DNA of 61,854 bases from an uncultured Lentisphaerales bacterium (GCA_964384625.1 CAYLNH010000009.1:1-61854); one strand, 5' to 3'. Counted from the stretch's first letter, positions 9,088 through 48,758 are shown. The notes: generated by a model from the sequence alone, not told the origin. Made by a program: numbers and translations.

Positions 9088-10373
9088 TGCTGTTTCTTCT
9101 CCTCCGGTACCGGCGTCGGCGTTGCCGGGGACTCGTCGATCGGCTCGCCGTTGATCTTCTTCCGCATCACCTCAATCGCCTTTGTCATCTGCGGGTCGGG
9201 CACGTCATCCGCTTTCTTGTCGGAGCGGTAGCGGCGCAGTTGCCGGTAGAGCTTCGGCATGTCGGCGGGCGGCGGCGCAATCCGGATATTCGGGGAAATG
9301 CCCCGGCCGTGGATGACCTTATTCGCCGGGGTGTAGTAGTGGCGCGTGGTCAGATGGACGGAGCTGTTGTCTTCCGGCAAGCGGAACACGAGCTGCACCG
9401 AGGCCTTGCCATAGGTGCGCTCGCCCACCAGAACCGCGCGACGGTGGTCCTTCAGGCAGCCGGCCAGGATCTCCGAAGCGCTGGCGCTTTGTTCATTGAT
9501 CAAGATCACCAGCGGCAGGTCCAGAAGCTTCTCCCGGCTGTTGCGGGCAAAGTGCGCGTCGCTCCGGGCATCATTGCGCGGCACTGTGGTCACTACCAGA
9601 GAGCCCCTCGGCAGGAAGATGCTCGCCACGTCGACCGCGGCCGTCAACATGCCGCCCGGGTTGAAGCGGAGATCAATGATCAGCCCCTTCAGCCGGCTTT
9701 TCATCTCGACCAGCACCTTGGCCATTTCCTCGCAGGTCTTTTCGTTGAACTGCACGATCTGCAGATAGCCGATGCCGTCATCGAGCAACTGCGCCCGCCG
9801 TACCGTCGGATATTCAATCAGCCGACGCATGACCTCGGCGTCGAACTCCCGGTTTTCCGATGCCCGGAACATGGTCAACACAATGCCGGTGCCGGCCTTG
9901 CCTTTGACCAGGCGGCGGACCTCTTCATTCGGCATGTTCTTGGTATCCTTGCCGGCGATTTCCATGATCTGGTCGTCGGCTTTCAGGCCGGCCTCTTCCG
10001 CCGGGCCTTCGGGCACAACCTGAACAATGGTCGGACGCCCCTGCAACTGATGGAACTCGATCCCGATGCCGGTGTACTCGCCGCGATTCGTCTCACTGAA
10101 GTGCTCGGCGGCGGCCGGCGGGAAATAGGAACTGTGCGGGTCCAGGTGGTTCAGCATGCCGTTCAGCGCGCCCGCCGTCAGATTCTCATAGCCGATGACC
10201 GTTTCGTCGTCGGTGACATACCAGTCGCGCACCAGGCCGATGACGCGCACAAACTTGCGCAACTGCATGATGCCTTCACGATGGTCGTCGGAGAAGTATC
10301 TGACGCCGATGAAGAGGTTCAGCGGCAGCACAACGGCCAGGACAAGCTGACAAATCTTGTAGTTTCGTTCCAT
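9084..10373 (-). CDS. ctpA: Carboxyl-terminal processing protease (S41 family) with a PDZ domain
   Basis: N-terminal TM/signal, a PDZ-like region (GIGIEFHQLQGRPTIVQVVPEGPAEEAGLKADDQIMEI) and an S41 catalytic region (LIIDLRFNPGG ... LINEQSASASEILAG with the Ser-Lys dyad context). Overlaps the tsaD start by 4 nt, so an operon. Confidence 0.8.
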   Translation of the reverse strand: MERNYKICQLVLAVVLPLNLFIGVRYFSDDHREGIMQLRKFVRVIGLVRDWYVTDDETVIGYENLTAGALNGMLNHLDPHSSYFPPAAAEHFSETNRGEYTGIGIEFHQLQGRPTIVQVVPEGPAEEAGLKADDQIMEIAGKDTKNMPNEEVRRLVKGKAGTGIVLTMFRASENREFDAEVMRRLIEYPTVRRAQLLDDGIGYLQIVQFNEKTCEEMAKVLVEMKSRLKGLIIDLRFNPGGMLTAAVDVASIFLPRGSLVVTTVPRNDARSDAHFARNSREKLLDLPLVILINEQSASASEILAGCLKDHRRAVLVGERTYGKASVQLVFRLPEDNSSVHLTTRHYYTPANKVIHGRGISPNIRIAPPPADMPKLYRQLRRYRSDKKADDVPDPQMTKAIEVMRKKINGEPIDESPATPTPVPEEKKQQ

Positions 10374-10586
10374 CTGGGTTCCGCAGCTAGGCTCCGCCTA
10401 CCTTACTCAGGGGCGGGATGAAGTCAAGATCGCGGGCGGGCCGGCGGCGGGGTCAGCAGGGCGATGCGTCCTTCGACCGACTTCGGGAACCCGGGAGCCG
10501 GGTTCGGCGGCACGGGACCCGGCGGTGCGAATGACATGAATGGCGGCGCCGTTGCTCCACGGCGGAGGGCCGGGTCCGGTCCGGGA

Positions 10587-23361: not shown

Positions 23362-24219
23362 CTACAGCAGCGCGGAACGGCGCCGGTACGCGCTGGCCGT
23401 CAAACCATGGGCCTGACGGAAAAGCCGGGCGAAGTAACGCGGGTCCTCGAGACCAACCCGCCGGCTGACCTCGCTGATCGGCAGCAACGTCGTCTGCAGC
23501 AACTCCGCGGCGCGTCGTAAACGTTGCTTCTGCAGCCACAGTTTCGGCGTCGTGCCAAGGTGCTGCCGGAACAGCCGGAACAGGGTCGGGGCACTGCGGC
23601 CGGCCGCCCGGGCCAGGTCCTCGATCTCCAACGGCTCGCCCAGATTGTCGTCGAGGAACTGCAGAACCCGACGCAGCGGCGCCGGCAACGCCGCCGGCCG
23701 GCCGCTGCGATCCCACGCCAGCCACTCGCGGATCAACTGACGCGCCAGGTCCCAGGCGACCTCCCGCGTCGGCCCGCGCATGAACCACTGCACGATATAC
23801 TCCCCCAGATGCTCCAGCGCCGGCCATTGCGCAAAATGCCCCGCCCGGACCCGCTCAAACCCCGGCAGCGGCACGTCCGCCCGCCGGCTGCTGTCCGCCA
23901 GCGGCTGCGACGGATCGTGGCGAACCCGGAATACCAGGTGCTCGCCCGCCGTCAGCGACGGCACAAGATGAACGCCCGCCAGCACGAACGGATGCCGCTG
24001 CGCCGCCCGGTAATGAACCGCGTGATGCCACGGCAGAATCAGGAACTGACCCGGCTCGAAATCAAAGGCGGTGCCGTTCACCCGAACCAGTCCACGCCCC
24101 TGCCGGCACCACAGCAGCATGCGGCTCTCAACGCAATCCGAACCGCCCGCGCGCCCCGGAGAAAAGGTCGCGTAATTCGCGTACAACACCATCGCATGCC
24201 GAAACCGGTCCTGCAACAA
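23362..24219 (-). CDS. AraC-family transcriptional regulator (cupin sensor plus HTH)
   Basis: C-terminal AraC HTH: LEIEDLARAAGRSAPTLFRLFRQHLGTTPKLWLQKQRLRRAAELLQTTLLPISEVSRRVGLEDPRYFARLFRQAHGLTASAY. Confidence 0.8.
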   Translation of the reverse strand: MLQDRFRHAMVLYANYATFSPGRAGGSDCVESRMLLWCRQGRGLVRVNGTAFDFEPGQFLILPWHHAVHYRAAQRHPFVLAGVHLVPSLTAGEHLVFRVRHDPSQPLADSSRRADVPLPGFERVRAGHFAQWPALEHLGEYIVQWFMRGPTREVAWDLARQLIREWLAWDRSGRPAALPAPLRRVLQFLDDNLGEPLEIEDLARAAGRSAPTLFRLFRQHLGTTPKLWLQKQRLRRAAELLQTTLLPISEVSRRVGLEDPRYFARLFRQAHGLTASAYRRRSALL

Positions 24220-25505: not shown

Positions 25506-28070
25506 TTATTCGGCGGTGACTACGGCTGACACCTGCTTCCCGGCGCGGACCCGGCGGGCGCGGAAGGAGGTCCTGCCGACACCGTCGATGACGAATTCCT
25601 GCAACGCCAGCCTGCCGCAGATAACCTTGAGCTCCGCCTTCATGCCGGTCTGCAGCGCGGTCAGTGTGCACGTGCCCCAGGCATCGCCGGTCGACCAGAA
25701 GTGGGTGCCCGGTCTGGCGGCGAAGGTCATGGTCGCCGTAACCGCGGAATAGCGGAACCCGGTCAACGCCGGAACGGCGGCCCAACTGGCCATGGCCCGG
25801 GCATAGTGGTGGCCGCATTCGGCTTCGTCGAACGGACTGCGTTTCCTGCCGTCGTAGCGATTGCGGATGTCCTGGATATGCTCGAGGCCCTGTTTCTCCA
25901 TGCCCTCGTAAAGCATGTGCACCGCGGCAGTGTATTCGAAGCCGGTCATGACTTCGTTGAAGTAGGGGAACGGCTGCTTCGGCCGCCCGCCGTGCGGATA
26001 CGTCGCCATCAGCAGCGCGGCTTCGTCACCAAGCACGTAAGAACGCATGTTGTTGAAGTGGTCGTGGAAACTCCGCCGATAATTGTACTTGCGGATACTG
26101 CGCAGTGTCTTGCGGATGTGCGAGCGCTTGAGCAGCTTGCCGAGGCCGCAGACGTCGGCCATATACTGGCCGACAAGCTGATCCACCAGGCAGCCGGGAC
26201 CGAGCTGCAGCACGGGTTTCGTCGCATCCTCGGCGCCCATGCGCATCTGCAGACCGGGGGCCACGGCATCCTTGCCTGGCGCCGGCCGGATCCGATGCTC
26301 GTAGTAGTCGCCGTTAAACAAATTCGCATCCAGCCACTTGCTGCCGTTGTCGAACAGCCCGCGGCAGTCGGCGGCGAAGTCCGCGTCGCCAACGTAACGC
26401 GCCATTTCCTCGGCGGCGCGCAGGGCGCCGAGATACCAGGCGCCCATCTGCGGATTCGGCCCGTAGTATTCGACGTCCATGGTGTTATGCTGACAGCCTT
26501 CCATGACGCCGTCTTTGTCGGCGTCCCAGCCGTTCTCGATCCAGCAGAACTCGACGGCCTTCTTCACCTTCGGCCAGAGCTTGCGCAACCAGTCGTCATC
26601 ACCGCAGAGCTGCCAGTCGCGGTAGATCTTCATGATGCACCCCAGTTGCCCGTCCGCCGCCGCACATGACATCTCGGCGGCGCGTTCCAGCGGCAGGTTG
26701 ACGCGGAAACTCATAAGGCCGTTGTCCCGGGTGGCGTGCAGGAATTCGATGTTGCGCATGGACCGGGACAGGCTGCCGAAGAGGAAGGCCGTCGCCTGTT
26801 CGTAGTTCCACACGTGCGTGCAGCTTCCGTGGCAGCAGCCGCGGCCGTCGCAGCAGCCTTCGAAGCCGAAGAAATGGCCGTCCGGCGTGCGGAAACAGGT
26901 CTGACTGCGCAGGGTGCTTAGATTGAACAGGGCCGCTTCTTTGACCACGTCCGGCAGATCGCTGCGGCAGAAGGCGTTAACGAACTGCAGCGTGCGCTGC
27001 TCCAGTTGCGGCAGGTCGGCGGCGACCCGGGCGGCGACGTCCCAGGCGTCTTTGTACTGGGTCGTGTAGTAGTTGCCGATGGTGTTGTGCTCGACGCACT
27101 TGTCGGCACAACAGCAGTCCTCGGCCGGCTTCGGCGTCCAGGTCTGCCGGTTCGGGAAGTGCCAGGTCAGCAGGAACGTCACGTCTCTGGTGCTCTTGGG
27201 CGGCACTGTGACTTCCACCGCCAGTGATGCCGTCGGGTTGTCGCTCTGTTCCGTGCCGGGCTCCAGCCTGCCGTCTTCGGTGAAATCATCCCAGAAGTCC
27301 AATCTGGCGCCGCCCCAGCGGTCATTGTTCCATCTGGTGCGGTAGGAGATCCTGGTTTTGGCCGTGGTCGTCAGCGCCATGGTGCCCCACTGCTCGGCTT
27401 GGGGATTGACGCCCTTGGAGTCCATGAACAGGCCGGCCAGGTTCTTCCGCCGGCGGAACCGGTTCCGGTTCTTTTTCATGCCGGCGGCAACCGGCTGGCC
27501 GCCCCAGACCGTATTGTGGCTGGAGCCGTCGGCCCCGATGAAATTCGGCAGACTGCCGCAGAGACTGGCGGCAACGCGCCTGGTCGTACGATTGGTCAAA
27601 ACAAACCGCAGGACGGCAACCGGGATGCCGCTGACCTCGGGATCGCCCGGAACGAGCGGGTTGAAGGCCTCGATGTCGACGGCGAGGGGGACGTCGTTGT
27701 CTTTCAGGTGGACCTGGCCGAACGGGTAGGCGGCCGAGAACGAGCAGTCGCGAAACCGCGGCAGCCCGTGCCAGGGCGCCGCACTGCCAGAAGCACCTTC
27801 ATATTCGAATGACTCCAGAGGGCCTTCCAGCAGCCGGGTCACGGCGTCCTCGCCGCTTGCCTTCGCCCGCAGACAGAAAAATGCCGGGCCGCCGACGCCG
27901 GCGGGGTTGAAGCCCTTTGCCGGGCGGTTGACGATCTCCCAGTGGTTCAGGTCGCCGCGGCCGCCCAGAGAAACGGTGCCGGTGCCGATGCCGCCGAGCG
28001 GCAGCGCGATACGCGCCAGATGATCGCTGTCGTAGTGTTTCAATACCGGCCACGTGGTCTTCTTCTTCAT
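25506..28070 (-). CDS. GH116-family non-lysosomal glucosylceramidase (GBA2-type beta-glucosidase)
   Basis: The N-terminal domain has the hallmark LPLGGIGTGTVSLGGRGDLNHWEI. The large (alpha/alpha)6 catalytic domain has RDNGLMSFR ... DGQLGCIMKIYRDWQLCGD. 854 aa. Confidence 0.8.
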   Translation of the reverse strand: MKKKTTWPVLKHYDSDHLARIALPLGGIGTGTVSLGGRGDLNHWEIVNRPAKGFNPAGVGGPAFFCLRAKASGEDAVTRLLEGPLESFEYEGASGSAAPWHGLPRFRDCSFSAAYPFGQVHLKDNDVPLAVDIEAFNPLVPGDPEVSGIPVAVLRFVLTNRTTRRVAASLCGSLPNFIGADGSSHNTVWGGQPVAAGMKKNRNRFRRRKNLAGLFMDSKGVNPQAEQWGTMALTTTAKTRISYRTRWNNDRWGGARLDFWDDFTEDGRLEPGTEQSDNPTASLAVEVTVPPKSTRDVTFLLTWHFPNRQTWTPKPAEDCCCADKCVEHNTIGNYYTTQYKDAWDVAARVAADLPQLEQRTLQFVNAFCRSDLPDVVKEAALFNLSTLRSQTCFRTPDGHFFGFEGCCDGRGCCHGSCTHVWNYEQATAFLFGSLSRSMRNIEFLHATRDNGLMSFRVNLPLERAAEMSCAAADGQLGCIMKIYRDWQLCGDDDWLRKLWPKVKKAVEFCWIENGWDADKDGVMEGCQHNTMDVEYYGPNPQMGAWYLGALRAAEEMARYVGDADFAADCRGLFDNGSKWLDANLFNGDYYEHRIRPAPGKDAVAPGLQMRMGAEDATKPVLQLGPGCLVDQLVGQYMADVCGLGKLLKRSHIRKTLRSIRKYNYRRSFHDHFNNMRSYVLGDEAALLMATYPHGGRPKQPFPYFNEVMTGFEYTAAVHMLYEGMEKQGLEHIQDIRNRYDGRKRSPFDEAECGHHYARAMASWAAVPALTGFRYSAVTATMTFAARPGTHFWSTGDAWGTCTLTALQTGMKAELKVICGRLALQEFVIDGVGRTSFRARRVRAGKQVSAVVTAE

Positions 28071-29137
28071 CGTTCTCTTCCTTTATGATCGCCGGCAGCA
28101 AGGCCGACGCGCTGTTGCTCTTGGGGAAGCGTCGAGTCGCGGATGATCAGTTCGGCGCGAACGCCGGTGCGGGTCGGCGTGCCGATGCCGTTCCGGAGAA
28201 TCTGGCTGAAACGCTGCAGCGCGATGCGCCCGATCTCGCCTTTGGACACGCCGATCGTCGTCAACGCCGGCTCCGTCACGGCGACATCGTCGAAGCCGAC
28301 GATCGAGATGTCCTGGGGAATGCGCCGGCCCGCCTCCTGTATCGCCGCCATGGCGCCGACCGCAGTGCGGTCGCTGACGGCGAAGACGGCGGTTGGCGGC
28401 GGTGATGCGGTCAGCAGCTGCTGCATTTCACGGTAGCCTTTGCGTTTTTCACCGGCGGAGCGATAGCGCGGCCGATATCTGGCCGGGCATTTAACCCCGG
28501 CGTCCCGCAGGGCGCGCCGGGCGCCTTCGGCGCGGTCCAGCAGGGTATGGTATTTCGGTGAACCGGGAAGAATGGCAATGCGCTCATGCCCCAGGTCGAG
28601 CAGGTGCTTCGCCGCCATATAGCCGCCGGCGCGGTTGTCGGGCAAGACCGCGTGCACCGGCAGATCCCAGAAATAGTGGTCGACCAGAACCACCGGCAGA
28701 TCACGGGCAAGCATCTGCTCGGCAGCCGCTCGGCTCGCCGTCGATTCGCCGAGGATGATGCAGCCGCGCACCGACTCCAGCTCCAGCTGCGGCAAGGCTT
28801 CGCCCTTCCGGGCGACGGCCAGCAGGACTCCCAGCTTCGCGGCGCGCGCGGCCGTCTCGATGCCTTCGATGATCTCGCCGTAGAAGACTTCTGAGAACGA
28901 CGACAGCGCCGATTGCTCCAGAACCAGGGCGACCAGACCGCCGGCCGGCTCCTGCGGCCGGCGGATGTCCGGCTCGTAGCCCAGCTCCTGCATCGCGGCC
29001 GCTATGCGCCGGCCCGTATCCCGGGCGACGCCGGCCATGCCCCGCATGTACAGCGATACCGTCGACGGCGCGACCTCGGCCGCCCGCGCCACATCGCGAA
29101 TCGTGACTCGTCCCAAACCAGACTCCTTTTCAAACAA
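28067..29137 (-). CDS. LacI-family transcriptional regulator
   Basis: N-terminal HTH VTIRDVARAAEVAPSTVSLYMRG followed by a periplasmic-binding-protein-like sugar-binding fold. Its stop overlaps the GH116 start by 4 nt, so they are co-transcribed. Confidence 0.8.
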   Translation of the reverse strand: MFEKESGLGRVTIRDVARAAEVAPSTVSLYMRGMAGVARDTGRRIAAAMQELGYEPDIRRPQEPAGGLVALVLEQSALSSFSEVFYGEIIEGIETAARAAKLGVLLAVARKGEALPQLELESVRGCIILGESTASRAAAEQMLARDLPVVLVDHYFWDLPVHAVLPDNRAGGYMAAKHLLDLGHERIAILPGSPKYHTLLDRAEGARRALRDAGVKCPARYRPRYRSAGEKRKGYREMQQLLTASPPPTAVFAVSDRTAVGAMAAIQEAGRRIPQDISIVGFDDVAVTEPALTTIGVSKGEIGRIALQRFSQILRNGIGTPTRTGVRAELIIRDSTLPQEQQRVGLAAGDHKGRER

Positions 29138-29394: not shown

Positions 29395-29414
29395 CAGAAT
29401 GTGAAGCTATTCTG
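29395..29414. promoter_or_regulatory. Inverted repeat CAGAAT-N8-ATTCTG 27 nt upstream of the Aas-like gene; candidate operator in the LacI/Aas divergent region
   Basis: Read directly: cagaatgtgaagctattctg. Assigning it to the adjacent LacI-family regulator is inference only. Confidence 0.3.
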
Positions 29415-29440
29415 AAACCGATCCTGAGGTTGGCATTTCG

Positions 29441-32101
29441 TTGGTACTGCTGAAGAACATATTCGCGTTGTTTGTTCGCGCTGTCCTGTCCCTGCGCTAC
29501 CGCTTTCACTGGAGGGGGCTCGACCGGATCAAGAGCCGCCGGGGCATCCTGTTCCTGCCGAACCACCCGGGCGAACTCGATCCGGTGTTCATCACGGCCC
29601 GACTGTGGCGGCGGTTTCAGCCGCGCGGGGTTGCCGTGGAGGACTTTTTCTATATGCCCGGGGTAAACCTGCTGATGCGGCTGATCAACGGCATCCCGAT
29701 GCCGAATGTCAGTCAAGGAGGCAGCGCCTACCAGCGCAGGCGCGTCGACCAGGCGCTGGATGAGGTGTGTGAATCACTCAAGCGCGGGGAGAACGTGTTG
29801 ATATACCCGGCCGGCCGGATGATGCGCGGCGGCCTTGAGGAGGTGCGCGGAGCGTCGGCCGTACACGACATTCTGCAGCGGGTGCCGGATGCAAACGTTG
29901 TTCTGCTGCGGTCCCGCGGGTTCCTCGGCAGCACCTTTTCCTGGGCTTTGCATCAACGGCGGCCGGACCTCGGCAAAGCGCTGAAGAACGGCATCCTCTG
30001 GACCATCGTCAACCTCTTCCTTTTCAATCCGCGCCGTTCCGTCACGGTGGACGTCGAGGAAGTGACGGACGCAATCCCGCGCGATGCCGACAAGATGACG
30101 TTGAATCGTTGGCTCGAGGACTGGTACAACAAGCCGGGCAAGGAGGAGCTGTCGCTGGTCTCGCTCTGCCGCTGGTGGCGAAAGGTGCCGACGCCGGTGG
30201 AGCCGAAGCAGGCCGGCGCCCGAAGCGATGTCGAAATCGACGACGAGGTCAAACAGAAGGTGACTGCGGAGATCGCGGACATCGCCCGGACAACGCCGGA
30301 CGACGTCACGGAAGGCATGACGCTGACCGGCGACTTGGGGTTTGACTCCTTGAACACCGCCGATCTGATCGGCTGGCTCGAGGAAGAGTTCTTCGTCACC
30401 GACATCGATCCGGCCGATCTGACGACCGTGAAAGACGTGATGGCGGCGGCGGTCGGCGCCGTCAGCACCGACACGGTCGAGGCGCCGACCACGACGCCGA
30501 AAGGTTGGGCGGAGAGCGGCACGCGGCCGGAGCTGGTGCTGCCGGATCCGGACCGCACGATCCAGATGCAGTTCCTTGAAACCTGCGACCGTCATCCCAA
30601 CGCCGTGGCGATTGCGGACGACACGAGCGTTCTGACCTACAAACGCATGAAGCTCGGCGCCTTGATCCTCGCCGAGGTCATCCGGGAACAGATCAAAGAG
30701 GATCGTGTCGGCATCATGCTGCCGGCGACTGCCGGCGCCAACGTCGTCATGATGGCGACGCTGCTGGCGAACAAGGTCCCGGTAATGATCAACTGGACGC
30801 TGGGCGACGCCAACCTGGAACATGTACTCGAGATTTCCGGCATCAGCAGGATCATCACGTCCGGCCGTTTCCTCGATCGCCTTGATCAGCTCAACTTCGA
30901 TATCCTGATGGACTACCTGATCACGATTGAGGAATGGCGACGCGAACAGATCGGCTGGCGGGCCAAGCTGCGCGCGATGCTGCGCGCCGGCAAGTCGCCG
31001 GACGCCGTCTGTCGTTTGTTCGGCTGCGACCGGGTCAAGCCCGACGACATCGGCGTTATCCTGTTCACCAGCGGTTCGGAGTCGCGCCCGAAGGGCGTGC
31101 CGTTGAGCCAGCGGAATATGCTTGCGGATATCCGGGGGGCGGTGCCGTTTGTCGGATTGAAGCCCGATGACTCGCTGCATGCTTTCCTGCCGCCCTTCCA
31201 CAGCTTCGGGTTTATCGTCACCGGCATCTTCCCGATGCTCGCCGGTCTGAAAACCGTGTACTACCCGAATCCGACGGACAGCCGCAAACTGGCGCTCGGC
31301 ATCGCCACCTGGAAAACCACTGCGACCTGCGGCACGCCGACCTTCATTGCCGGTATCCTGCGCGTCGCAACCACGGAACAGCTGCAATCGCTACGCCTCG
31401 TCGTCTGCGGCGCGGAGAAGACGCCCGCGGACCTGTTCAAGGCCGCCGACGACCTCGACATCGAAGTCCTGGAAGGCTACGGCATCACCGAAACCGGCCC
31501 GGTCCTGACGCTGAACGAGACCGGCAAGGACGCGGTCGGCGTCGGCAAACCCATCGGCGGCGTCGAGCTTCGCATTGTCGGCGTTGACGACCGCCGCCCC
31601 CTGGAGACCGGCGAACGCGGCCTCATTCTGGCGCGGGGCCCGAATGTGTTCAGCGGCTATCTGGGCCGCGACTCCAGCGACGCCTTCCAGGAACTGAACG
31701 GCGACCGGTATTACGTCACCGGCGACTTGGGGTTCCTTGACGACCGCGGCTATCTGACCCTGGCCGGCCGGCTCAAACGCTTTGTCAAAGTCGCCGGCGA
31801 AATGGTCAGCCTGCCCGCCATGGAAGCGGCAATCGCGGCCCACTGGCCGAATGAAGAAGGCGTCGTCCGTACGGCCGTCAGCGCTTATGAGGTCGAAGGC
31901 GAACGGCCAACGCTCTGCCTGTTCAGCAGCTTCGAGGTCAGCACCGACGACGTCAACGCCGTACTCAAGGAGGCGGGCTTTGCCAATCTGGTTCGCGTCT
32001 CCAAGGTGATCCGGTTGGATGAGATCCCGATCCTCGGCACCGGCAAGACGGACTACCAGGCGCTCAAGCGGCGGCTGGCCGAAGCCCTCGACCGGGAGTA
32101 A
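29441..32101 (+). CDS. Trifunctional Aas-like enzyme: lysophospholipid acyltransferase (PlsC-type) domain, embedded acyl-carrier-protein domain, and acyl-AMP ligase (adenylation) domain
   Basis: The acyltransferase H(X)4D motif is in FLPNHPGELDPVF. The carrier domain has the phosphopantetheine-attachment serine in TGDLGFDSLNTADLIGWLEEEF. Adenylation motifs are ILFTSGSESRPKGV (A3), EGYGITETG (A5), YVTGDLG (A7) and ILGTGKTD (A10). 886 aa. Confidence 0.8.
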   Translation: MVLLKNIFALFVRAVLSLRYRFHWRGLDRIKSRRGILFLPNHPGELDPVFITARLWRRFQPRGVAVEDFFYMPGVNLLMRLINGIPMPNVSQGGSAYQRRRVDQALDEVCESLKRGENVLIYPAGRMMRGGLEEVRGASAVHDILQRVPDANVVLLRSRGFLGSTFSWALHQRRPDLGKALKNGILWTIVNLFLFNPRRSVTVDVEEVTDAIPRDADKMTLNRWLEDWYNKPGKEELSLVSLCRWWRKVPTPVEPKQAGARSDVEIDDEVKQKVTAEIADIARTTPDDVTEGMTLTGDLGFDSLNTADLIGWLEEEFFVTDIDPADLTTVKDVMAAAVGAVSTDTVEAPTTTPKGWAESGTRPELVLPDPDRTIQMQFLETCDRHPNAVAIADDTSVLTYKRMKLGALILAEVIREQIKEDRVGIMLPATAGANVVMMATLLANKVPVMINWTLGDANLEHVLEISGISRIITSGRFLDRLDQLNFDILMDYLITIEEWRREQIGWRAKLRAMLRAGKSPDAVCRLFGCDRVKPDDIGVILFTSGSESRPKGVPLSQRNMLADIRGAVPFVGLKPDDSLHAFLPPFHSFGFIVTGIFPMLAGLKTVYYPNPTDSRKLALGIATWKTTATCGTPTFIAGILRVATTEQLQSLRLVVCGAEKTPADLFKAADDLDIEVLEGYGITETGPVLTLNETGKDAVGVGKPIGGVELRIVGVDDRRPLETGERGLILARGPNVFSGYLGRDSSDAFQELNGDRYYVTGDLGFLDDRGYLTLAGRLKRFVKVAGEMVSLPAMEAAIAAHWPNEEGVVRTAVSAYEVEGERPTLCLFSSFEVSTDDVNAVLKEAGFANLVRVSKVIRLDEIPILGTGKTDYQALKRRLAEALDRE

Positions 32102-32108
32102 CGAACCG

Positions 32109-32978
32109 GTGAGCCGGACCGATACAGCCGATGTCCTGATTGTCACCGCGCTCCGGGCCGAAGCCCAGCCGCTGATCGAGCACTATGGCTTGAAGCAGGA
32201 CACGGCGATCCCGTACTTGCCGGTGTTCGCCGGGGACCGCATCCGCCTGGCCGTCGGCCGCCCGGGCAAAGCCAAGGGCGCCGTCGCCGCCACCTTCCTC
32301 CTGGCGACCGCGCCATCGTTGGCCAACACGGTCGTGCTGAATGTCGGCGTTGCCGGGTATGCCGGCGACCCGATAACGGACAAGGTCGAGTACGGCGAGG
32401 TCTTCGTTGTCAATCGCATTCGCGATCAGGCCTCCGGCGCGGAGTACTTCCCCGACCTGCTGGTCCGTACAGACTGTCGGGAGACGGCACTGACCACATT
32501 CGACTACGGGGTCGATGCCGGCGCGGCGCCGGACAACCTGCAGGGCCTCGTGGATATGGAAGCGGCCGGCGTGTATCAGGCCGCCGCCACCTTCCTGCCG
32601 CCGCACCGCATTGGCTTCATCAAGGTCGTCTCTGATTTCCTCGAACTGGACAAGCTCAACCTGCCCGGTATCGAAGAACTGATGCGCCGCCGGGTCGATG
32701 CCTGTGGGCGCCTGATCGAAGCCTACGCGGCCATCGACGCGGATCGCCGGGAGGTCCTCAGCGCCGACGACAAGGACCTCCTGGCACAAGTCGTCACAAG
32801 CCTGCGACTGACCGTGACGCAGCAGGAGCAACTGACCGAATGGGCCCGCTGCTGTTGCCTGCGGACCCAGAAACTCCCCGACCTGGCCGCATTCATCGGC
32901 ATCGACGTCAAACAGAAATCCGAAGGAAAGCGACGGTTGGCGCAACTGCGGACGGTTCTGCTCGGCGACGGCGCCTGA
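32109..32978 (+). CDS. Nucleoside phosphorylase/nucleosidase (PNP_UDP_1, MTA/SAH-nucleosidase-like) family protein with a roughly 90-aa C-terminal extension; GTG start 8 nt after the Aas-like stop
   Basis: VLIVTALRAEAQPLIEHY ... RLAVGRPGKAKGAVAATFLLA ... DMEAAGVYQAA matches the MTAN/PNP family fold signature. The upstream part of the ORF-track protein (Arg/Ser-rich and overlapping the previous gene) was rejected. Confidence 0.6.
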   Translation: MSRTDTADVLIVTALRAEAQPLIEHYGLKQDTAIPYLPVFAGDRIRLAVGRPGKAKGAVAATFLLATAPSLANTVVLNVGVAGYAGDPITDKVEYGEVFVVNRIRDQASGAEYFPDLLVRTDCRETALTTFDYGVDAGAAPDNLQGLVDMEAAGVYQAAATFLPPHRIGFIKVVSDFLELDKLNLPGIEELMRRRVDACGRLIEAYAAIDADRREVLSADDKDLLAQVVTSLRLTVTQQEQLTEWARCCCLRTQKLPDLAAFIGIDVKQKSEGKRRLAQLRTVLLGDGA

Positions 32979-33028
32979 CGCGGTCGGCCGCGGGCCCGCC
33001 CGGCGCGCCGACGAGACGAACGGCTGGA

Positions 33029-34045
33029 ATGATGCAGAGGCAAAACCGGTTCTCCCACATCTACCTTGAGGAACAGGCGCGAGACAACGCCCTGACGCAA
33101 CGCGTACTGGCGCGATTCCCCGGCGCGGAGATCATCCCGCTCGTCCGCTACCAACAGGTGTTCGGCCGCCCCCGACAGGCCTTCCAGGTCCAGAAACAAA
33201 GCCGAAAGCTGATTCTCGCCGTCAAACCCGACGACTACCTGTACCCCGGGTCCGAGCGCTGTCAGGACTTCGGTTTCGACAACTTCTTCTACACCACGCC
33301 GATGCTGAATTGCCCGCACGACTGCGACTACTGCTATCTGCAGGGGCTGCTGCCGTCGGCAAACCTGGTGATGTTCGTCAATACCGCCGATTTCCTGCAG
33401 GCGACGGCGGCTCAGATCGCGGCCCGTCGGAATCGGAATCAGCCGCTGTATGTCTGCATCTCTTACGACACGGATCTGCTGGCGGTCGAACCGCTGGCCG
33501 GTTACTGCCGGGAGTGGATCGCCTTTGCCGACGGCCGCGACGATCTGGTGCTCGAAATTCGCACGAAGAGCGCCGCCTATCCGGCGATCGCGGACCTGCC
33601 GGCAGTCGACAACGTGATCCTGGCCTGGACGGTGTCGCCGAATGCCGTCCGACAGCGTTACGAACATCACACCCCGCCGTTGGCTGCCCGCCTGCGGGCT
33701 GCCGCCGCCGCCGTTGACGACGGCTGGCCCGTGCGACTCTGCTTCGACCCGGTGCTCGCCGTTCCCGACTGGCGCGAAGTCTATGCCGCACTGGTTGACA
33801 CGGTCTTTGCGCAGGTGGCGGCCGACCGGCTTCGCGACGTCTCCATCGGTTCTTTCCGGATGGCGAAAGTGCAGTTCGACCGAATCCGCAAGGACCGCCC
33901 GGACTGTGACCTCTACCACGGCAATACCGTTGTCGACGGCGCTGCAGTGGGCTATTCGAACGCTTTGCGGAAGCGGATTGTCAATCGGTTGAAGGAGCTG
34001 GTGGGCCGCTTTCTGCCGGCGAACAGGATTGCCTGCAGCGAGTAA
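33029..34045 (+). CDS. Spore-photoproduct-lyase (SplB)-like radical SAM protein
   Basis: Radical-SAM cysteine triad CPHDCDYCYLQ (CxxxCxxC followed by the Tyr/Leu/Gln typical of the SPL family). About 338 aa of TIM-barrel-like content. The Met at aa 64 of the track ORF is preferred as the start. Confidence 0.65.
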   Translation: MMQRQNRFSHIYLEEQARDNALTQRVLARFPGAEIIPLVRYQQVFGRPRQAFQVQKQSRKLILAVKPDDYLYPGSERCQDFGFDNFFYTTPMLNCPHDCDYCYLQGLLPSANLVMFVNTADFLQATAAQIAARRNRNQPLYVCISYDTDLLAVEPLAGYCREWIAFADGRDDLVLEIRTKSAAYPAIADLPAVDNVILAWTVSPNAVRQRYEHHTPPLAARLRAAAAAVDDGWPVRLCFDPVLAVPDWREVYAALVDTVFAQVAADRLRDVSIGSFRMAKVQFDRIRKDRPDCDLYHGNTVVDGAAVGYSNALRKRIVNRLKELVGRFLPANRIACSE

Positions 34046-34067: not shown

Positions 34068-34817
34068 TCAGGGCTGACCTCCTGCCTGGCTCCGAAGCGC
34101 CAGCCAGACCGCGGCCAGGCGGCGGCCCAGAAGGAGTTGGCCCGGCGTGGTGTAGTGCAGATTGTCGCCGGTCGGCAGGTCATCCGTATCCACCCACCCG
34201 GCGTACGGATCCTGAACGGTGACATAGACCTGGGCGTCGCGCACGATCGTGCGGTAGGCGTGCTGGTGCCGCAAGCTCGACAGGTTGACCATGCGCGGGC
34301 TGACGCGGCCGAGAACGAACGGCAACTCCGCCGTGCCGGTATCCTGGCGCAAGGCCGCGAGCAAGCCGGCCAGATTGTCTTCGTAAGCGTGGGCCATGAA
34401 GCTGAAGACCGAATCGCGCTCGCCCTGCACCCAGAGGACGCCGGCGACGTCAATCTCATCGTCCTCGAACTCCTCGCAGAGCTGCGTCAGGGCTGCCAGC
34501 AACTGCGGATAGAGCGGGCCGCGGTACTCATCCTTCTCTTCGTCCTTCGAGACGCCGTCGGGATTCCAGTCGTAGAACAGATTGGCGCCGCCGCGCGCGT
34601 GTTTGCAGAGCACGACATCGGTAATGCCGGCGTTGGCGACGGCGTGGGCAAAGCCCACTTCCGGGCCGAATGTCTCGCGCCAGATCAACGCGCGGAACTC
34701 GCCGTCCTCGAACAGCCGAATCCCGGCCGGAGCGGACTGATAAGCGTCCGGCAACTCCGCGCTGACCCCGGCCCCCGCCATGTTCGATTGTCCGGCCAGC
34801 AACACGATCTTCGGCAT
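34068..34817 (-). CDS. SGNH-type carbohydrate esterase (sialate 9-O-acetylesterase-like, SASA/DUF303 family)
   Basis: MPKIVLLAGQSNMAG; the GQSNM motif is characteristic of the family. About 249 aa. Confidence 0.7.
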   Translation of the reverse strand: MPKIVLLAGQSNMAGAGVSAELPDAYQSAPAGIRLFEDGEFRALIWRETFGPEVGFAHAVANAGITDVVLCKHARGGANLFYDWNPDGVSKDEEKDEYRGPLYPQLLAALTQLCEEFEDDEIDVAGVLWVQGERDSVFSFMAHAYEDNLAGLLAALRQDTGTAELPFVLGRVSPRMVNLSSLRHQHAYRTIVRDAQVYVTVQDPYAGWVDTDDLPTGDNLHYTTPGQLLLGRRLAAVWLALRSQAGGQP

Positions 34818-35030
34818 CGAGTGTCTCCTTGGCACAGGCAGCGTCGCAGCTGCTGCACAAGCGTACCCTACCTTGCCAACGCCCTCTCTGCCAGCCGCTA
34901 CTTCGACTCCGGGCGCATATGTCACTTTCGTAGGCGTTTCCTGCCAACAACTGGCTCGATCCTACGACCCCAGGCGGTTTATCCGCCTGGTGAAGAAGTT
35001 CATTAGTGGCTGCAAGCCCTCACCCCTCAC

Positions 35031-35320: not shown

Positions 35321-36622
35321 CTATTCATTGCAGTTGCCCATCTCCCGCGCCGGGAACTCGTCTCCGAGTTGCTCCAGCTTCTGCGCCAGTGCTGCGTGCA
35401 GTTTCTCGCGTTGACCGGCTGCCGCGGGATCGTCGATACGGTTGTCCATCTCGTAGGGGTCGCTTGCCAGATTAAACAGCTGACACGGGCCCTGCGTCAG
35501 GTAGCACGTGTACTTCCAATTGCCGAGGCGAATTGTGCGGAAGACGCTGTCCGGGGTTGCCGGAAAGAAAGTGCTCTCGTACTGCAGCAGGACGCTGTCG
35601 GCGCCGGCCTCTTTCGGATCGCGCAGGACGCGGCTCAGATCTTCGCCCTCGACGCCGTCCGGAATCGGCAGCCCCAAAACCCCCAACAGCGTCGGCATGA
35701 AATCGACCGCACTGATGAGTGCGTCACTCACCGTTCCGCCGGGCACCAGTTCGGGATAGCGGACCAGAAGCGGGATACAACTGGACTCTTCTTCCGGTCG
35801 CGATTTGCCGAGTCGCCCATGGCTGCCCATGAGATCGCCGTGATCCGAAAAGTACATCACCACCGTGTTGTCCAACTGGTCCATGTCCTCCAACTTCTGC
35901 AGGACGCGACCGACGTTGTCGTCCAGGTTCCTGATTTGCGCGTAGTACCCGCGCAGGACCTCCTTGAATCGTTCTGTGTGTTCGTTCTCGTGATCGAAGT
36001 TCTCCCGGAAATCCAGGGCGCGATCGGCATACATTGCCATGTAGGGCTCGGGCGCCTGGTTCGGCGGGTGCGGCGGTTCAATGGACATGACGTGGAACCA
36101 GGGCTGGTCGTCCGGCAGGGCGTCAAGCCATTCCAGGGTCAGGTCGGTCAGGCAGTCGGTCTGGTAGCCGTCGAACCATCGGAACGGGCCGGGGCCCGGG
36201 CCGGCCGCGTACATCGTGCGGAAAGGTTCATTCGAGTTCTCCCAGCCCTGCCAGACATCCCAGCCGGGACGGAAATAGGGCGACACGAAATGCGTCGGCC
36301 CGGCGCCGCCGGCCAGGTGCCACTTGCCGTGGTGGCAGGTGTGATAGCCGTGCCGGCGCAGGACCTCCGGCAACTCCGGCTGCATCGGCAGCAGAGGGCG
36401 GTGCAGTGAGATCACGCCATGAGTCGTGATATACTGGCCGGTGTACAGGTTCGCGCGGAACGGCGCACACAAGGGGGTGTTGGAATAGGCGCTGGTGAAC
36501 CGCATGCCCTCGGTTGCCAGCCGGTCCAGGTTCGGTGTTTCAACATTGGGATCGCCGGCACAGCCCAGGGCGTGCGCCCGATGCTGGTCCGAGAATATCC
36601 AGAGAACATTCGGTAAACTCAT
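35321..36622 (-). CDS. Cys-type sulfatase (arylsulfatase family)
   Basis: MSLPNVLWIFSDQHR ... TPLCAPFRANLYTGQ with the C-x-P-x-R formylglycine motif. Alkaline-phosphatase-superfamily fold. Start taken at the Met before LPNVLWIF. Confidence 0.8.
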   Translation of the reverse strand: MSLPNVLWIFSDQHRAHALGCAGDPNVETPNLDRLATEGMRFTSAYSNTPLCAPFRANLYTGQYITTHGVISLHRPLLPMQPELPEVLRRHGYHTCHHGKWHLAGGAGPTHFVSPYFRPGWDVWQGWENSNEPFRTMYAAGPGPGPFRWFDGYQTDCLTDLTLEWLDALPDDQPWFHVMSIEPPHPPNQAPEPYMAMYADRALDFRENFDHENEHTERFKEVLRGYYAQIRNLDDNVGRVLQKLEDMDQLDNTVVMYFSDHGDLMGSHGRLGKSRPEEESSCIPLLVRYPELVPGGTVSDALISAVDFMPTLLGVLGLPIPDGVEGEDLSRVLRDPKEAGADSVLLQYESTFFPATPDSVFRTIRLGNWKYTCYLTQGPCQLFNLASDPYEMDNRIDDPAAAGQREKLHAALAQKLEQLGDEFPAREMGNCNE

Positions 36623-37090
36623 CACAAATCTCGCTTGTATCGATTCGCCACTCCCATCTACCGTGAGTTCAGTTTCGTGCTTGTCCACTCAAACCGGAGC
36701 GCAGTTCCCGGGGCGATACCCCCCCGGGCTACGCCGTACAAGGGCGTTGCCCTTGGTTCCGGCAGGGCACCTCCAGGGCGCGGAAACGCGACGAAACGGC
36801 TGAAACCGACAGTCCCATCCGGCGCGACGACGAAGAGTTCCGATGGCTGCCCCAAGCTCAGCTTTGGGTTTCTTCGCGGAGAGCAGGAATCGAGCCCACA
36901 GCCCTTTTCGCGGCAGGCGTAGCCAACGGATCATTGCCTCGACAGAGACGAACCCGCGGGCGGCAGGAAGGCGGCATGGGAAAGTGCACACGCCGTCCAT
37001 CACGGAGGCATCACTTCTGGGCAGACCGCCGTCCTTGCGTTGTCGGCTGCGTACGTGTAGACTTCTGCTGAGTCCGGTTCCGGAAATGAA

Positions 37091-37177: not shown

Positions 37178-38083
37178 ATGACCAGATTCGACCCCAGCTG
37201 GACCTTCTTCAGTATCGACGTTGAGGTCTCCGCCGTGTGTGACCTCGACTGTGCCATGTGCCCGCGCGACCGCATCACCAGGCCGCAGGATGTGATGGCG
37301 GCATCGACCTTTATGACGTTGGCCGAACAGGCCGCAGTGTTGTCTTCACGGCTCACGCTGTGCGGCATGGGCAACCCGCTGCTCAATCCGTTGTGGCCGG
37401 AATTTGTCCGGACCTACCACAACTACGGCGGACAGATCGGCCTGCTCGTACACGCCGCCGGGTTGACCGGCAAGAACTGCGGGCAGCTCGTTGACAGCTC
37501 GCCCGACTTCCTTGAAATCTCTTTCCCGTCCTGTACCGCTGCGGTTTTCGATCGACTCTGCCCGGGCTGTTCCTATGACCAGTGTCTCAGGCAGGTGCTG
37601 AACCTGGCCGACAGCCGCACTCGCCGATTTCCGCTGGTCATGACCAGTGTCGAAACCAGACTCAACCCGAACGAAGCCGCCGACAGCAAGGCGTTCTGGA
37701 AGGAACACGGGTTGACGTCACGGACCTATCGCTGTCACAGCCGCGGACAGAACCTGGAAGCCGCAGACCTGACGGTTGCCGTCGCCCGACCCGTCGAAAC
37801 CTGCGGGCTGTTTGCCATCCAGGCCTTTATCAACTGGGAGGGCAAGCTTCTCAGTTGCTGTCACGATCTCACCAACGCCACGGTGATCGGCGACGTCAAC
37901 GAAGACCGCCTGGAAGACCTGATGCAGCGTAAGGCCGAAATTCTCGCCGGCGGCATGCCCTACGACATCTGCGGCAACTGCGACGACAGCCGCGCCGGCC
38001 TGCCCGTCCCCGACCAACCCTACATCGCCGCCGGCAAGTCCCGCTCGAAGTTTCTCCGCCAATGGAGCCGAAGGTCTTCCTGA
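37178..38083 (+). CDS. Compact radical SAM protein with a C-terminal SPASM/twitch-like Cys-rich domain; candidate anaerobic sulfatase-maturating enzyme, divergent from the sulfatase
   Basis: CDLDCAMC (CxxxCxxC) near the N-terminus. The C-terminus has LSCCHDLTNATVIGDVNEDRLEDL ... DICGNCDD (SPASM-like G-N-x-x-E-x-L-E-D motif between Cys pairs). Only 301 aa, compared with about 370-400 for canonical anaerobic sulfatase-maturating enzymes (anSME). Confidence 0.55.
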   Translation: MTRFDPSWTFFSIDVEVSAVCDLDCAMCPRDRITRPQDVMAASTFMTLAEQAAVLSSRLTLCGMGNPLLNPLWPEFVRTYHNYGGQIGLLVHAAGLTGKNCGQLVDSSPDFLEISFPSCTAAVFDRLCPGCSYDQCLRQVLNLADSRTRRFPLVMTSVETRLNPNEAADSKAFWKEHGLTSRTYRCHSRGQNLEAADLTVAVARPVETCGLFAIQAFINWEGKLLSCCHDLTNATVIGDVNEDRLEDLMQRKAEILAGGMPYDICGNCDDSRAGLPVPDQPYIAAGKSRSKFLRQWSRRSS

Positions 38084-47016: not shown

Positions 47017-48758
47017 TGCGAAAGCATCTCCAGGGCCCATTGGGCCAGACGTTCACGGTTGATCTTGGCATTATGCCGCACGTCAACCGGTAGTTCTTCG
47101 TTGAACAAAATGGTCTGGATCATCCGCGTGGCATCGTGTTTCTCGGCGACTTTCAACAAGGCGTTGCGCAGGATTTTCTGTTTATCCGGGGGCGGCAGTT
47201 CCTCGCCGGTCGGTTCCACCACGAGCACCGGCAACTGGTTATATCGCGACGGGCCGACGCCGACCAGGGCGCAGCGATAGACGTCGGGATGTTCGTTGAA
47301 CACGGCTTCACAACCGAGGGTGTAGAGCCGGCGGCCTGGGATTTCGACGCGGATCGGCCGGCTCGGCGGCAGGGAGATATATTGCACGCGGCCTTCGATT
47401 TCAATGCGCTGGGAGCGCCGGCCCAAGAGCCAGAGGCGCCCGCGCTTGTCGAAGTAGCCCAAGTCTCCGATCCGGTGCCAGAAGGGGCCGTCGATGTCTT
47501 CGGTCTCGTAGATCTTGTGGGCTTCGTCGTGATGCGGCGTACGGAAATAGGCCGGGCTGACATTGGCGCCTTTGACCACGATTTCGCCGATGCGGCCCGG
47601 CGGCAGGACCTCGGCGTAGCTCCAGTACGGGATGGGGTCGTCGGATACGGCGATAATCTCGATGTCAACCCCCGGCAGCGGTTCGCCCACGCAGAAGCCG
47701 CGGCCGCGGGACGTGAGTTCGCAGGTTTCCTCGAGCATCAGCGTGCCGCGGAAAGAGGTGACCGGCAGGCATTCGGTGGCGCCGTAGGGGGTGTAAATGT
47801 CGCCGTCCTCCGGCAGGACGCTGCCGAGCATGCGGACGTGCAGGTAGGCGGGCACCGGCGCGCCGGCCATGAAGACTTTCTTCAACGAGTCGAAGCGCAC
47901 CTTATTCTGCTGGCACCAATAGCTGACCACGGCCCACAGCGCCGGCGACCCGAAACTGATGGTTGGTTTATGCTCGCGCACCAGCGAGGCGATGTTCTTC
48001 GGCTCGACGTCGATCGGCGAGGTATAGTCCATGTCCGGGAAGACCACGGTGCAGCCCATCGACAGCGTGTAGAGGCTGAACAACATGAAGGCCGGCATAT
48101 CGATGTCGTCCTCGGTCAGCTCATAGGCGGTCTGCAGCAGTTCGCGTTGGCGGCAGAACATGCCGTGGGTGTACACGACGCCTTTCGGCGGTCCGGTACT
48201 GCCGCTGGTGAAGACGATGGCGGCCGGGTCGTCCGGCCGGGTGGCGATTGCGGGGATCGGGCCGTCGCGCACGTCAATGTCGTTCAGGTTGTTGCCGCCC
48301 CAGACAAAGCTGCTGCCGATGGTCACCTTGATCTTGACGGACTTGAAGTATTTCCGATACAGCAGTTTGGCCGCCTGCGCCCTGGCGACGCCGACAAATG
48401 CTTCGGGCGCCGAGAGTTCGACGCAGCTGAGCATCTTTTCTTTGCCGATGCCCGGGTCGATCAACACCGGCACGGCGCCGATCTTGAACAGCGCGAAGAC
48501 AAGGGGAAGAAATTCAAGGCAGGGGCTGACCATGTAGCTGACGCGCATGCCGGGGGTCACCCCGATCTTCAGGAACCCGCGGGCGAAGGCATCGATCTGG
48601 TCGTTCAATTCCCGGTAGGTAAGCCTGGAATAGGTGATATTCCCTTCGCCGTCGTTGCTCTCGGGAAACAGAACCGCTGTCTTGTCCGGGGTGCGCTCGG
48701 CGTATTCCGGGATGAATGCGGCCAAATTGGCAATATTGTCGCCGGGGGTGTCACTCAT
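47013..48758 (-). CDS. AMP-dependent synthetase/ligase of the OleC (olefin/beta-lactone synthetase) type
   Basis: Adenylation motifs IVFTSGSTGPPKGVVY, YTPYGATECLPV and GDLGYFDKRGRLWLLGR. The N-terminal FALFKIGAVPVLIDPG and C-terminal VDVRHNAKINRERLAQWA blocks are as I recall for OleC-family enzymes. 581 aa. Confidence 0.6.
   Translation of the reverse strand: MSDTPGDNIANLAAFIPEYAERTPDKTAVLFPESNDGEGNITYSRLTYRELNDQIDAFARGFLKIGVTPGMRVSYMVSPCLEFLPLVFALFKIGAVPVLIDPGIGKEKMLSCVELSAPEAFVGVARAQAAKLLYRKYFKSVKIKVTIGSSFVWGGNNLNDIDVRDGPIPAIATRPDDPAAIVFTSGSTGPPKGVVYTHGMFCRQRELLQTAYELTEDDIDMPAFMLFSLYTLSMGCTVVFPDMDYTSPIDVEPKNIASLVREHKPTISFGSPALWAVVSYWCQQNKVRFDSLKKVFMAGAPVPAYLHVRMLGSVLPEDGDIYTPYGATECLPVTSFRGTLMLEETCELTSRGRGFCVGEPLPGVDIEIIAVSDDPIPYWSYAEVLPPGRIGEIVVKGANVSPAYFRTPHHDEAHKIYETEDIDGPFWHRIGDLGYFDKRGRLWLLGRRSQRIEIEGRVQYISLPPSRPIRVEIPGRRLYTLGCEAVFNEHPDVYRCALVGVGPSRYNQLPVLVVEPTGEELPPPDKQKILRNALLKVAEKHDATRMIQTILFNEELPVDVRHNAKINRERLAQWALEMLSQ

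Follow-up and report, generated by a model that had tools for sequence, protein, structure and literature searches.

An Aas-type acyltransferase fusion next to a nucleosidase/radical SAM gene pair in an uncultured Lentisphaerales bacterium

The Aas protein of Escherichia coli consists of a transferase domain (residues 1-203) and a synthetase domain (residues 204-719) and uses the free holo form of the acyl carrier protein (ACP), and fusions of LplT with Aas are mentioned in the same paper (PMC11416262). Among radical S-adenosylmethionine (SAM) enzymes, HpnH works together with the nucleosidase HpnG, which acts on an adenosyl adduct (PMC13459092), and the spore photoproduct lyase (SPL) carries a proposed lesion-flipping hairpin (PMC3467042). 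In this paper we compare with these systems three genes of an uncultured Lentisphaerales bacterium, which are found at 29441-34045 of a stretch of 61,854 nt (GCA_964384625.1 CAYLNH010000009.1:1-61854; G+C about 63%), hereafter called the window. The three open reading frames (ORFs) are all on the plus strand and encode an Aas-type fusion protein (gene 1), a nucleosidase-fold protein (gene 2) and an SPL-family radical SAM protein (gene 3). Our results show that genes 2 and 3 are conserved as a pair, and gene 1 independently of them. We consider it reasonably likely that the locus is made up of two independently conserved units, placed head to tail and probably co-transcribed, of which the first is Aas-type and the second is a nucleosidase/radical SAM module.

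Conservation of the three genes

The three genes and the regions recognised in them are:

29441-32101, plus strand: gene 1, TTG start, 886 aa; predicted Aas-type lysophospholipid acyltransferase / carrier domain / acyl-ACP-synthetase fusion (Pfam, NCBIfam, homologs)
29504-29830, plus strand: PlsC-type acyltransferase domain, gene 1 residues 22-130 (Pfam), with NHPGELD (HX4D) at 29561-29581
30254-30436, plus strand: carrier (phosphopantetheine-binding, PP-binding) domain, gene 1 residues 272-332 (Pfam), with DLGFDSL at 30332-30352 and Ser303 as predicted phosphopantetheine site
30578-31663, plus strand: AMP-binding (adenylation) core, gene 1 residues 380-741 (Pfam); the acyl-ACP-synthetase-like region extends to about residue 881
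32109-32978, plus strand: gene 2, GTG start, 289 aa; methylthioadenosine/S-adenosylhomocysteine (MTA/SAH)-nucleosidase-fold protein (profile against PDB, AlphaFold model, Foldseek)
32130-32723, plus strand: nucleosidase domain, about residues 8-205 of gene 2, by its matches to MTA/SAH nucleosidases (MTANs)
32724-32975, plus strand: extra helical C-terminal domain in the model, about residues 206-289 of gene 2, with a conserved LRLTxxQ motif
33029-34045, plus strand: gene 3, ATG start, 338 aa; SPL-family radical SAM protein with the CX3CX2C motif CPHDCDYC at 33311-33334

An earlier reading of this DNA, below called the original prediction, had already placed a nucleosidase-family gene and an SPL-type radical SAM gene with CPHDCDYC here, and both are found where it put them. 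The gap between the TAA of gene 1 and the GTG of gene 2 at 32109 is 7 nt, and a Shine-Dalgarno-like GGGAG is situated inside the end of gene 1, just before the GTG.

For an analysis of the distribution of the pair, one genome per species was scanned with the gene 2 profile, which resulted in 317 loci, of which 80 were kept and analysed. These loci belong to at least 12 phyla and include Latescibacterota, Zixibacteria, Gemmatimonadota, Planctomycetota (Sedimentisphaerales), Verrucomicrobiota (Opitutales) and Lentisphaerales, Bacillota such as Clostridium tyrobutyricum, Thermoanaerobacter, Caldicoprobacter, Tepidibacillus and Vulcanibacillus, as well as Bacteroidota/Balneolales, Myxococcota, Leptospirales, Dictyoglomaceae and Thermodesulfobacteria. 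Of the 78 loci that leave room for it, 75 have a gene 3 homolog as the next gene in the same orientation, and the gene after that encodes a short-chain dehydrogenase/reductase (SDR) in 47 of 67 loci. Within the window itself no SDR partner was found elsewhere by tblastn. The same picture is seen from the other side. When the look-up was seeded with gene 3 homologs (a Gemmatimonadota-type chromosome, Leptospira noguchii, a Lentisphaerae-like metagenome-assembled genome (MAG), a Bacillaceae-type contig and a Marinimicrobia-type contig), a nucleosidase-like gene was immediately upstream in all five, often overlapping. The only cases we have seen of a nucleosidase-like gene without its partner are four Leptospirales loci (L056, L064, L068 and L084), in which there is no SPL-family gene. 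Genes 2 and 3 are thus an obligate and widespread adjacent pair. The original prediction had tied the nucleosidase specifically to the radical SAM enzyme, and this view agrees with what we observe. An ordinary purine nucleoside phosphorylase (PNP), or a general purine phosphorylase, was rejected on the obligate linkage to an SPL-family gene together with the MTAN-type catalytic residues of gene 2.

Some loci show further genes around the pair. In a Bacillaceae-type contig (L097, 6771-7451) gene 2, gene 3 and the SDR gene are followed by two genes for small multidrug resistance proteins (PF00893), and the gene 2 homolog is longer there, with 382 aa. A CN_hydrolase (nitrilase-superfamily) gene is found near the module in Leptospira (L004/L005, about 9880-10870) and in an unrelated metagenome contig (L088, 8416-9186), which may be coincidence.

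Gene 1 shows a different distribution. Its acyltransferase or carrier domain is found in none of the 80 gene 2 loci. Conversely, no homologs of genes 2 or 3 are found near any of the seven gene 1 relatives that were sampled, six of them with 52-65% identity (L090, L091, L092, L094, L095, L096) and one a metagenome locus with 39% (L093), which is the single locus that a metagenome scan for gene 1 relatives gave. In the MAG of the closest relative, GCA_964631005.1, both units exist on separate contigs: the gene 1 ortholog (65%) is on CAZVWO010000349, and those of genes 2 and 3 (51% and 58%) come after a URO-D-like gene on CAZVWO010000519. Shortly 3' of the gene 1 homolog, three of the seven relatives possess an ORF of about 160 aa that has no Pfam match (L091 8771-9265, L092 8942-9436, L094 6451-6927; 25-34% identity among the three). 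This ORF is absent from the window, where genes 2 and 3 fill its position.

Gene 1, an Aas-type protein with its own carrier domain

The original prediction described gene 1 as an acyltransferase, a complete carrier domain and an acyl-AMP ligase on one polypeptide, and this domain order is borne out by Pfam. The acyltransferase domain matches PF01553 (E=6e-11), with NHPGELD at residues 41-47, the PP-binding domain matches PF00550 with 27.9 bits against a cutoff of 20.8, and the AMP-binding domain matches PF00501 (E=5e-66). The top NCBIfam models (PRK08633, PRK06334, PRK06814, PRK08043) are of the Aas or acyl-ACP ligase types, in agreement with the Aas-like logic proposed earlier. For the adenylation domain the closest models are acyl-[ACP]--phospholipid O-acyltransferase, long-chain-fatty-acid--ACP ligase and E. 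coli Aas. Gene 1 stays below every NCBIfam equivalog cutoff (449.6 bits vs 1221 for PRK08633; 395.5 vs 847; 228.9 vs 886 for PRK08043).

At E<1e-20, a homolog search with gene 1 gave 821 proteins, of which the best 120 are 40-65% identical to it, have equal length and architecture, and come from Lentisphaeria, Chlamydiales (where the depositor name is 'Bifunctional protein Aas') and Cloacimonadota. About 20 of the best 120 carry an extra N-terminal major facilitator superfamily (MFS) domain, which is the same arrangement as in the LplT-Aas fusions (PMC11416262). When these 120 homologs are aligned, the HX4D residues H42 and D47, the carrier-domain residues D302-S303 and the adenylation lysine K869 are invariant in 120 of 120, and for D302-S303 this includes homologs without a Pfam PP-binding flag. 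The carrier serine, on which the earlier proposal depended, is therefore intact. The TSGSExxPKG, GYGITE, TGD and GK motifs are conserved as well. Gene 1 thus carries every motif predicted for the adenylation of a fatty acid, its carriage on the protein's own phosphopantetheine and its HX4D-type transfer. On its domain matches and homologs, gene 1 belongs, as an ordinary member, to a large family of Aas type, and the fusion is not peculiar to this locus. Hundreds of database proteins share the tri-domain architecture, which is thus nothing unusual.

The comparison with E. coli Aas and its partner LplT shows what is common and what is different. Both proteins have an HX4D acyltransferase at the N-terminus and an adenylation domain of acyl-ACP-synthetase type at the C-terminus. 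Unlike in E. coli Aas, the two catalytic domains of gene 1 are separated by a carrier domain (about 80 aa) that contains the invariant serine of the DSL motif. To call gene 1 a cis version of Aas is apt, because the E. coli protein has two domains only and uses free holo-ACP. The built-in carrier domain is a modest variation on the Aas theme. We suggest that the adenylation domain would activate a free fatty acid, that the acyl group would be loaded on the phosphopantetheinylated carrier domain of the protein itself (at Ser303) and not on free ACP, and that the N-terminal HX4D acyltransferase would then pass it to a lysophospholipid. The role might be membrane repair or remodelling; the substrate is presumed, and the domain assignments are those of the Pfam matches given above. 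No lplT gene was identified beside gene 1 in the window. A second AMP-binding gene is found at 47367-48239 on the minus strand, with 27% identity to the adenylation domain of gene 1 (tblastn).

Genes 2 and 3 and the chemistry they may share

Gene 2 is hardly recognised by the Pfam model of its superfamily (PF01048, PNP_UDP_1; E=0.003, 17.5 bits vs a gathering cutoff of 25.1). The profile of the gene 2 family finds MTA/SAH nucleosidases in PDB at E=1e-10, and Foldseek searches with the AlphaFold 2 (AF2) model, which has a predicted local distance difference test (pLDDT) score of 91.9, find MTANs and futalosine or aminodeoxyfutalosine nucleosidases at E~1e-13, with template modelling (TM) scores, normalised to target length, of 0.58-0.69 to many MTANs. 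In the alignment with E. coli MTAN, the invariant residues E18, E151 and D176 fall on its catalytic Glu12, Glu174 and Asp197. Because of these profile and fold matches and the catalytic residues, gene 2 is very probably an active hydrolase that releases adenine from a 5'-substituted adenosine.

By model score gene 2 belongs to none of the families MtnN/Pfs, MqnB and HpnG. It shares the fold and the catalytic Glu/Glu/Asp with MtnN/Pfs, but has only about 15-20% identity to it, a shortened core, a helical domain of about 85 aa added at the C-terminus and the obligate linkage to an SPL-family gene; the MtnN/Pfs model PRK05584 gives 16.9 bits vs 169. The best NCBIfam match is the futalosine hydrolase model TIGR03664 (26.7 bits vs 124.7), and no NCBIfam match to an HpnG model was found. 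No mqn or hpn genes are present in the 80 clustered gene 2 neighbourhoods. Membership in HpnG or MqnB was rejected on these scores and this context. The C-terminal domain had no significant Pfam match; at E<=10 a single hit of chance level appeared (DUF4131, E=0.067, in 1 of 4 sequences). We speculate that this domain may dock onto the gene 3 partner. By an exhaustive profile search (E<=1e-30) the gene 2 family comprises 2413 clusters at 50% identity, of which the best 150 are full-length matches, nearly all with 263-307 aa. In the databases the members are named 'phosphorylase' or 'MTA/SAH nucleosidase family protein'.

Gene 3 matches the SPL family PF20903 (E=4e-15). Its AF2 model (pLDDT 91) superposes over the full length on the SPL structures 4fhc and 4fhg with a TM of 0.80-0.82, and the next-best radical SAM fold reaches only about 0.4. 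The sequence identity to SPL is 18%, and the family alignment has a mean column identity of 59% across phyla. Like SplB (PDB 4FHC and related), gene 3 has the whole-chain fold, the CX3CX2C motif followed by YLQ (CxYCYLQ in SPL), both active-site tyrosines, which are conserved, and a C-terminal beta-hairpin, at residues 300-309, in the place of the SPL hairpin. There are differences as well. The scores are below the SPL equivalog cutoffs (TIGR04070, 69.1 bits vs 400; TIGR03886, 43.2 vs 437.55), the position of the hydrogen donor Cys140 of SPL is occupied by Ser145, which is invariant in the gene 3 family, and the tip of the hairpin is not conserved. For these reasons we regard gene 3, as judged from alignment and model, as a structural relative of SPL outside the SplB family. 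In SplB the hydrogen atom is donated by a fourth conserved cysteine, Cys140/141 or, in clostridia, Cys77. The only nearly invariant cysteine of gene 3 besides those of the cluster is C238, whose location differs from that of Cys140. Furthermore, gene 3 differs from SplB in being always paired with a nucleosidase, usually also with an SDR, and in occurring mostly in non-spore-formers.

In the databases the gene 3 family has names such as 'SPL family radical SAM protein', 'DNA photolyase' and 'photoproduct lyase' (e.g. Q72VV1 from Leptospira interrogans). The literature that we searched gave no function for the pair, nor for SPL homologs of organisms that form no spores. What this literature contains is an SOS-regulated COG1533 'splB', described by PF04055 and COG1533, which by its description looks like a different group.

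What could such a pair do? We infer the chemistry of the whole unit from its sequences and their relatives. The SPL-fold radical SAM enzyme (gene 3) would cleave SAM reductively, the dedicated MTAN-fold nucleosidase (gene 2) would hydrolyse adenine off an adenosyl-derived product of gene 3, and the SDR (in some Clostridia a mutarotase) would take over the freed ribose-type sugar. The removal of adenine from an adenosyl-derived radical SAM product is our best guess for the pair, which in our view varies the known theme of a radical SAM enzyme with a nucleosidase. What gene 2 hydrolyses might be 5'-deoxyadenosine, the by-product, or else, as in HpnH/HpnG and MqnE/MqnB, a 5'-C-adenosylated substrate. 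We are slightly inclined to an on-pathway adenosyl product, since gene 2 is tied exclusively to one radical SAM family and because of the extra domain and the SDR.

The likeness to HpnH/HpnG lies in a radical SAM enzyme followed by an enzyme of the PNP/MTAN superfamily that removes adenine, and a later opening and reduction of the sugar would fit an SDR (PMC13459092). However, gene 3 has the SPL fold and not that of HpnH, there are no hopanoid genes nearby, and adenosylation by our pair is hypothetical. MqnE/MqnB follow the same radical-SAM-plus-nucleosidase logic, and aminodeoxyfutalosine nucleosidases are among the PDB profile and fold matches of gene 2. Here the difference is that MqnE compares with the gene 3 model at a TM of only about 0.4 and that mqn genes are not found nearby. 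One can go further and see in genes 2 and 3, with the SDR, a third radical adenosylation that uses the SPL fold: the 5'-deoxyadenosyl radical would add to an unsaturated substrate, adenine would be taken off, and the SDR would reduce the ribosyl end to a polyol, coupled to fatty-acid activation in this genome and in the lineages with an acyl-CoA-synthetase-like neighbour. We regard this detailed scheme as quite unlikely as it stands. If true, it would mean that hundreds of species, from over 12 phyla, make a C5-extended compound, be it a metabolite or a lipid.

The catalytic residues of gene 2 would also suit a pure clean-up of by-products, in which a radical SAM enzyme of any function is accompanied by its own 5'-deoxyadenosine nucleosidase and by an SDR that processes 5-deoxyribose, in a host without MtnN. 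We think it rather doubtful that the pair can be explained in this way. The nucleosidase accompanies one radical SAM family only, though anaerobes encode dozens, and its extra C-terminal domain is conserved. Bacillota carriers normally possess MtnN. In favour of clean-up, 5'-deoxyadenosine and 5-deoxyribose are known as toxic by-products that require disposal (PMC6079011). The known salvage of 5-deoxyribose consists of a kinase, an isomerase and an aldolase and does not involve an SDR (PMC6079011).

The fold of gene 3 raises another question, namely whether the pair serves the repair of DNA or other nucleic acids. Gene 3 would then be an SPL paralogue that reverses a different lesion, gene 2 would remove 5'-deoxyadenosine, and the SDR or mutarotase would dispose of 5-deoxyribose. 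Besides the full-length SPL fold with its beta-hairpin, the CxYCYLQ motif and the tyrosines, the gene neighbourhood points in this direction. In nine Bacillota loci a homolog of the DNA-repair endonuclease EndoQ (PDB 5zb8, E=3e-42) is found directly upstream of gene 2, at a distance of 16-47 nt or, in L063, with a 4-nt overlap (L039, L040, L041, L051, L052, L055, L062, L063, L076). It is the fold together with these EndoQ neighbours that keeps a repair role alive. However, the nine loci count as about one lineage because wider synteny is common to them. In seven of the nine, the gene after gene 3 encodes a mutarotase of the TTE1925 type instead of an SDR. The invariant serine at the position of the hydrogen donor and the unconserved hairpin tip do not fit a repair enzyme of SPL type, and the isoelectric points of the gene 3 family, from 5.3 to 9.6, are not uniformly basic. 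Many carriers are strict anaerobes or thermophiles of dark habitats, and direct-reversal repair is not known to involve a private nucleosidase, an SDR or a mutarotase. A repair function thus seems unlikely to us.

Several points weigh against our reading of two separate units with the roles suggested here. The lysophospholipid role of gene 1 is predicted from family resemblance, with every equivalog cutoff missed, and the substrate, product and activity of genes 2 and 3 are likewise predictions. In the fold comparison gene 3 is far closer to SPL, a hydrogen-abstracting lyase, than to HpnH or MqnE. The 7-nt gap and the GGGAG argue for co-transcription of genes 1 and 2 in this genome. Finally, adenylating enzymes adjoin the pair in three unrelated lineages. 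Apart from the window, a gene of about 500 aa that resembles acyl-CoA synthetases is next to the pair in bacterium HR37 (L012, 7362-12511) and in Opitutales (L057/L070/L075, about 11900-13420). This is suggestive of a functional link to acyl activation, but it is too thin for assigning a pathway.

The last two points are also what speaks for the claim of the original prediction that the three genes form one self-contained pathway for a lipid or acyl metabolite. In such a pathway gene 1 would tether an acyl group to its own carrier domain, gene 3 would modify the tethered acyl group or the resulting lipid, and gene 2 would only clear inhibitory 5'-deoxyadenosine. The shared strand fits with this, and so do lipid-related neighbours elsewhere. 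In the four Leptospirales loci without an SPL-family gene, gpsA (glycerol-3-phosphate dehydrogenase) overlaps the start of the gene 2 homolog (L056, L064 and L068, about 8990-10850; L084, 3689-5595). Ceramidase-type hydrolases are found in L012, where a membrane hydrolase of PF05875 precedes the acyl-CoA-synthetase-like gene, and in Gemmatimonadota-type loci, where a MOSC protein and a PF04734 ceramidase come after the SDR (e.g. L001, 9869-12126). Nevertheless, a single pathway appears very unlikely. Co-conservation, on which the original prediction had itself made its claim depend, failed in both directions, among the 80 gene 2 loci as among the seven gene 1 relatives, the two units are on separate contigs in the closest relative, and the conserved ORF of about 160 aa follows three of the gene 1 relatives instead of the pair. 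The pair itself is conserved across phyla in housekeeping neighbourhoods without lipid genes. The probable co-transcription of genes 1 to 3 in this genome looks like a local juxtaposition.

Neighbouring features and the meaning of the pair

The surroundings of the three genes contain the following features:

25506-28070, minus strand: gene for a glycoside hydrolase family 116 (GH116) glycosidase of beta-glucosidase 2 type; its start is overlapped by 4 nt by the stop of the LacI gene
28067-29137, minus strand: LacI-family regulator, divergent from gene 1 (Pfam LacI and Peripla_BP_3/1)
29395-29414, no strand assigned: inverted repeat CAGAAT-N8-ATTCTG, 26 nt 5' of the gene 1 start, at chance level
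34068-34925, minus strand: SASA-type carbohydrate esterase, convergent with gene 3
35321-36688, minus strand: sulfatase, beyond the esterase

The esterase and the sulfatase are on the minus strand, and hence the co-directional block consists of exactly three genes. The inverted repeat had been pointed out earlier as lying in the region shared with a divergent LacI-family gene. Its presence and the divergent LacI gene hold true, and its significance does not. In the 303-bp spacer two perfect 6-bp repeats are observed against a mean of 0.87 in shuffled sequences, 22% of which reach two, and across the whole window such repeats occur at a mean of 2.3 per 303 bp. The repeat is therefore not above chance. 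The 4-nt overlap places the LacI gene most simply in a sugar operon with GH116, which the arrangement at 25506-29137 on the minus strand suggests. All NCBIfam LacI-family matches of this gene are under the equivalog cutoff. An AraC-type regulator is found further on, at 23362-24219 on the minus strand. A LacI operator, or a LacI-regulated operon of genes 1 to 3, was rejected, as the repeat does not exceed chance, translational coupling joins the LacI gene to GH116 and no LacI neighbour is found beside the sampled gene 1 relatives.

The Rfam scan of the leader and spacers gave no credible match at E<=1, with one chance-level hit on the minus strand of gene 1 (E=0.25, 22.9 bits vs a gathering cutoff of 42). 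In scans for promoter-like and terminator-like sites the counts were not above those of shuffled sequences. A defence system was considered and dropped, as PADLOC gave no match for the proteins of genes 1, 2 and 3 or for the SDR. Beyond the sulfatase, at 37178-38083 on the plus strand, there is a stand-alone radical SAM / SPASM-domain protein of 301 aa (PF04055 and PF13186), which has weak matches to spiro-SPASM and tungsten-cofactor maturase models.

We consider the pair of a nucleosidase and an SPL-like radical SAM enzyme, usually joined by an SDR, a more valuable result than the fusion protein, which is an Aas-type enzyme of a common sort with automatic annotation. The pair is found with a fixed gene order in at least 12 bacterial phyla, and its nucleosidase family comprises at least 2,400 clusters at 50% identity. 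Its carriers include the pathogen genus Leptospira (L. noguchii, L. interrogans and L. kirschneri) and industrial clostridia. Solving the function of the pair would lead either to a new radical DNA-repair reaction or to a new adenosyl-derived metabolite, and would also account for the 'DNA photolyase' labels that databases attach to these proteins in organisms without spores.

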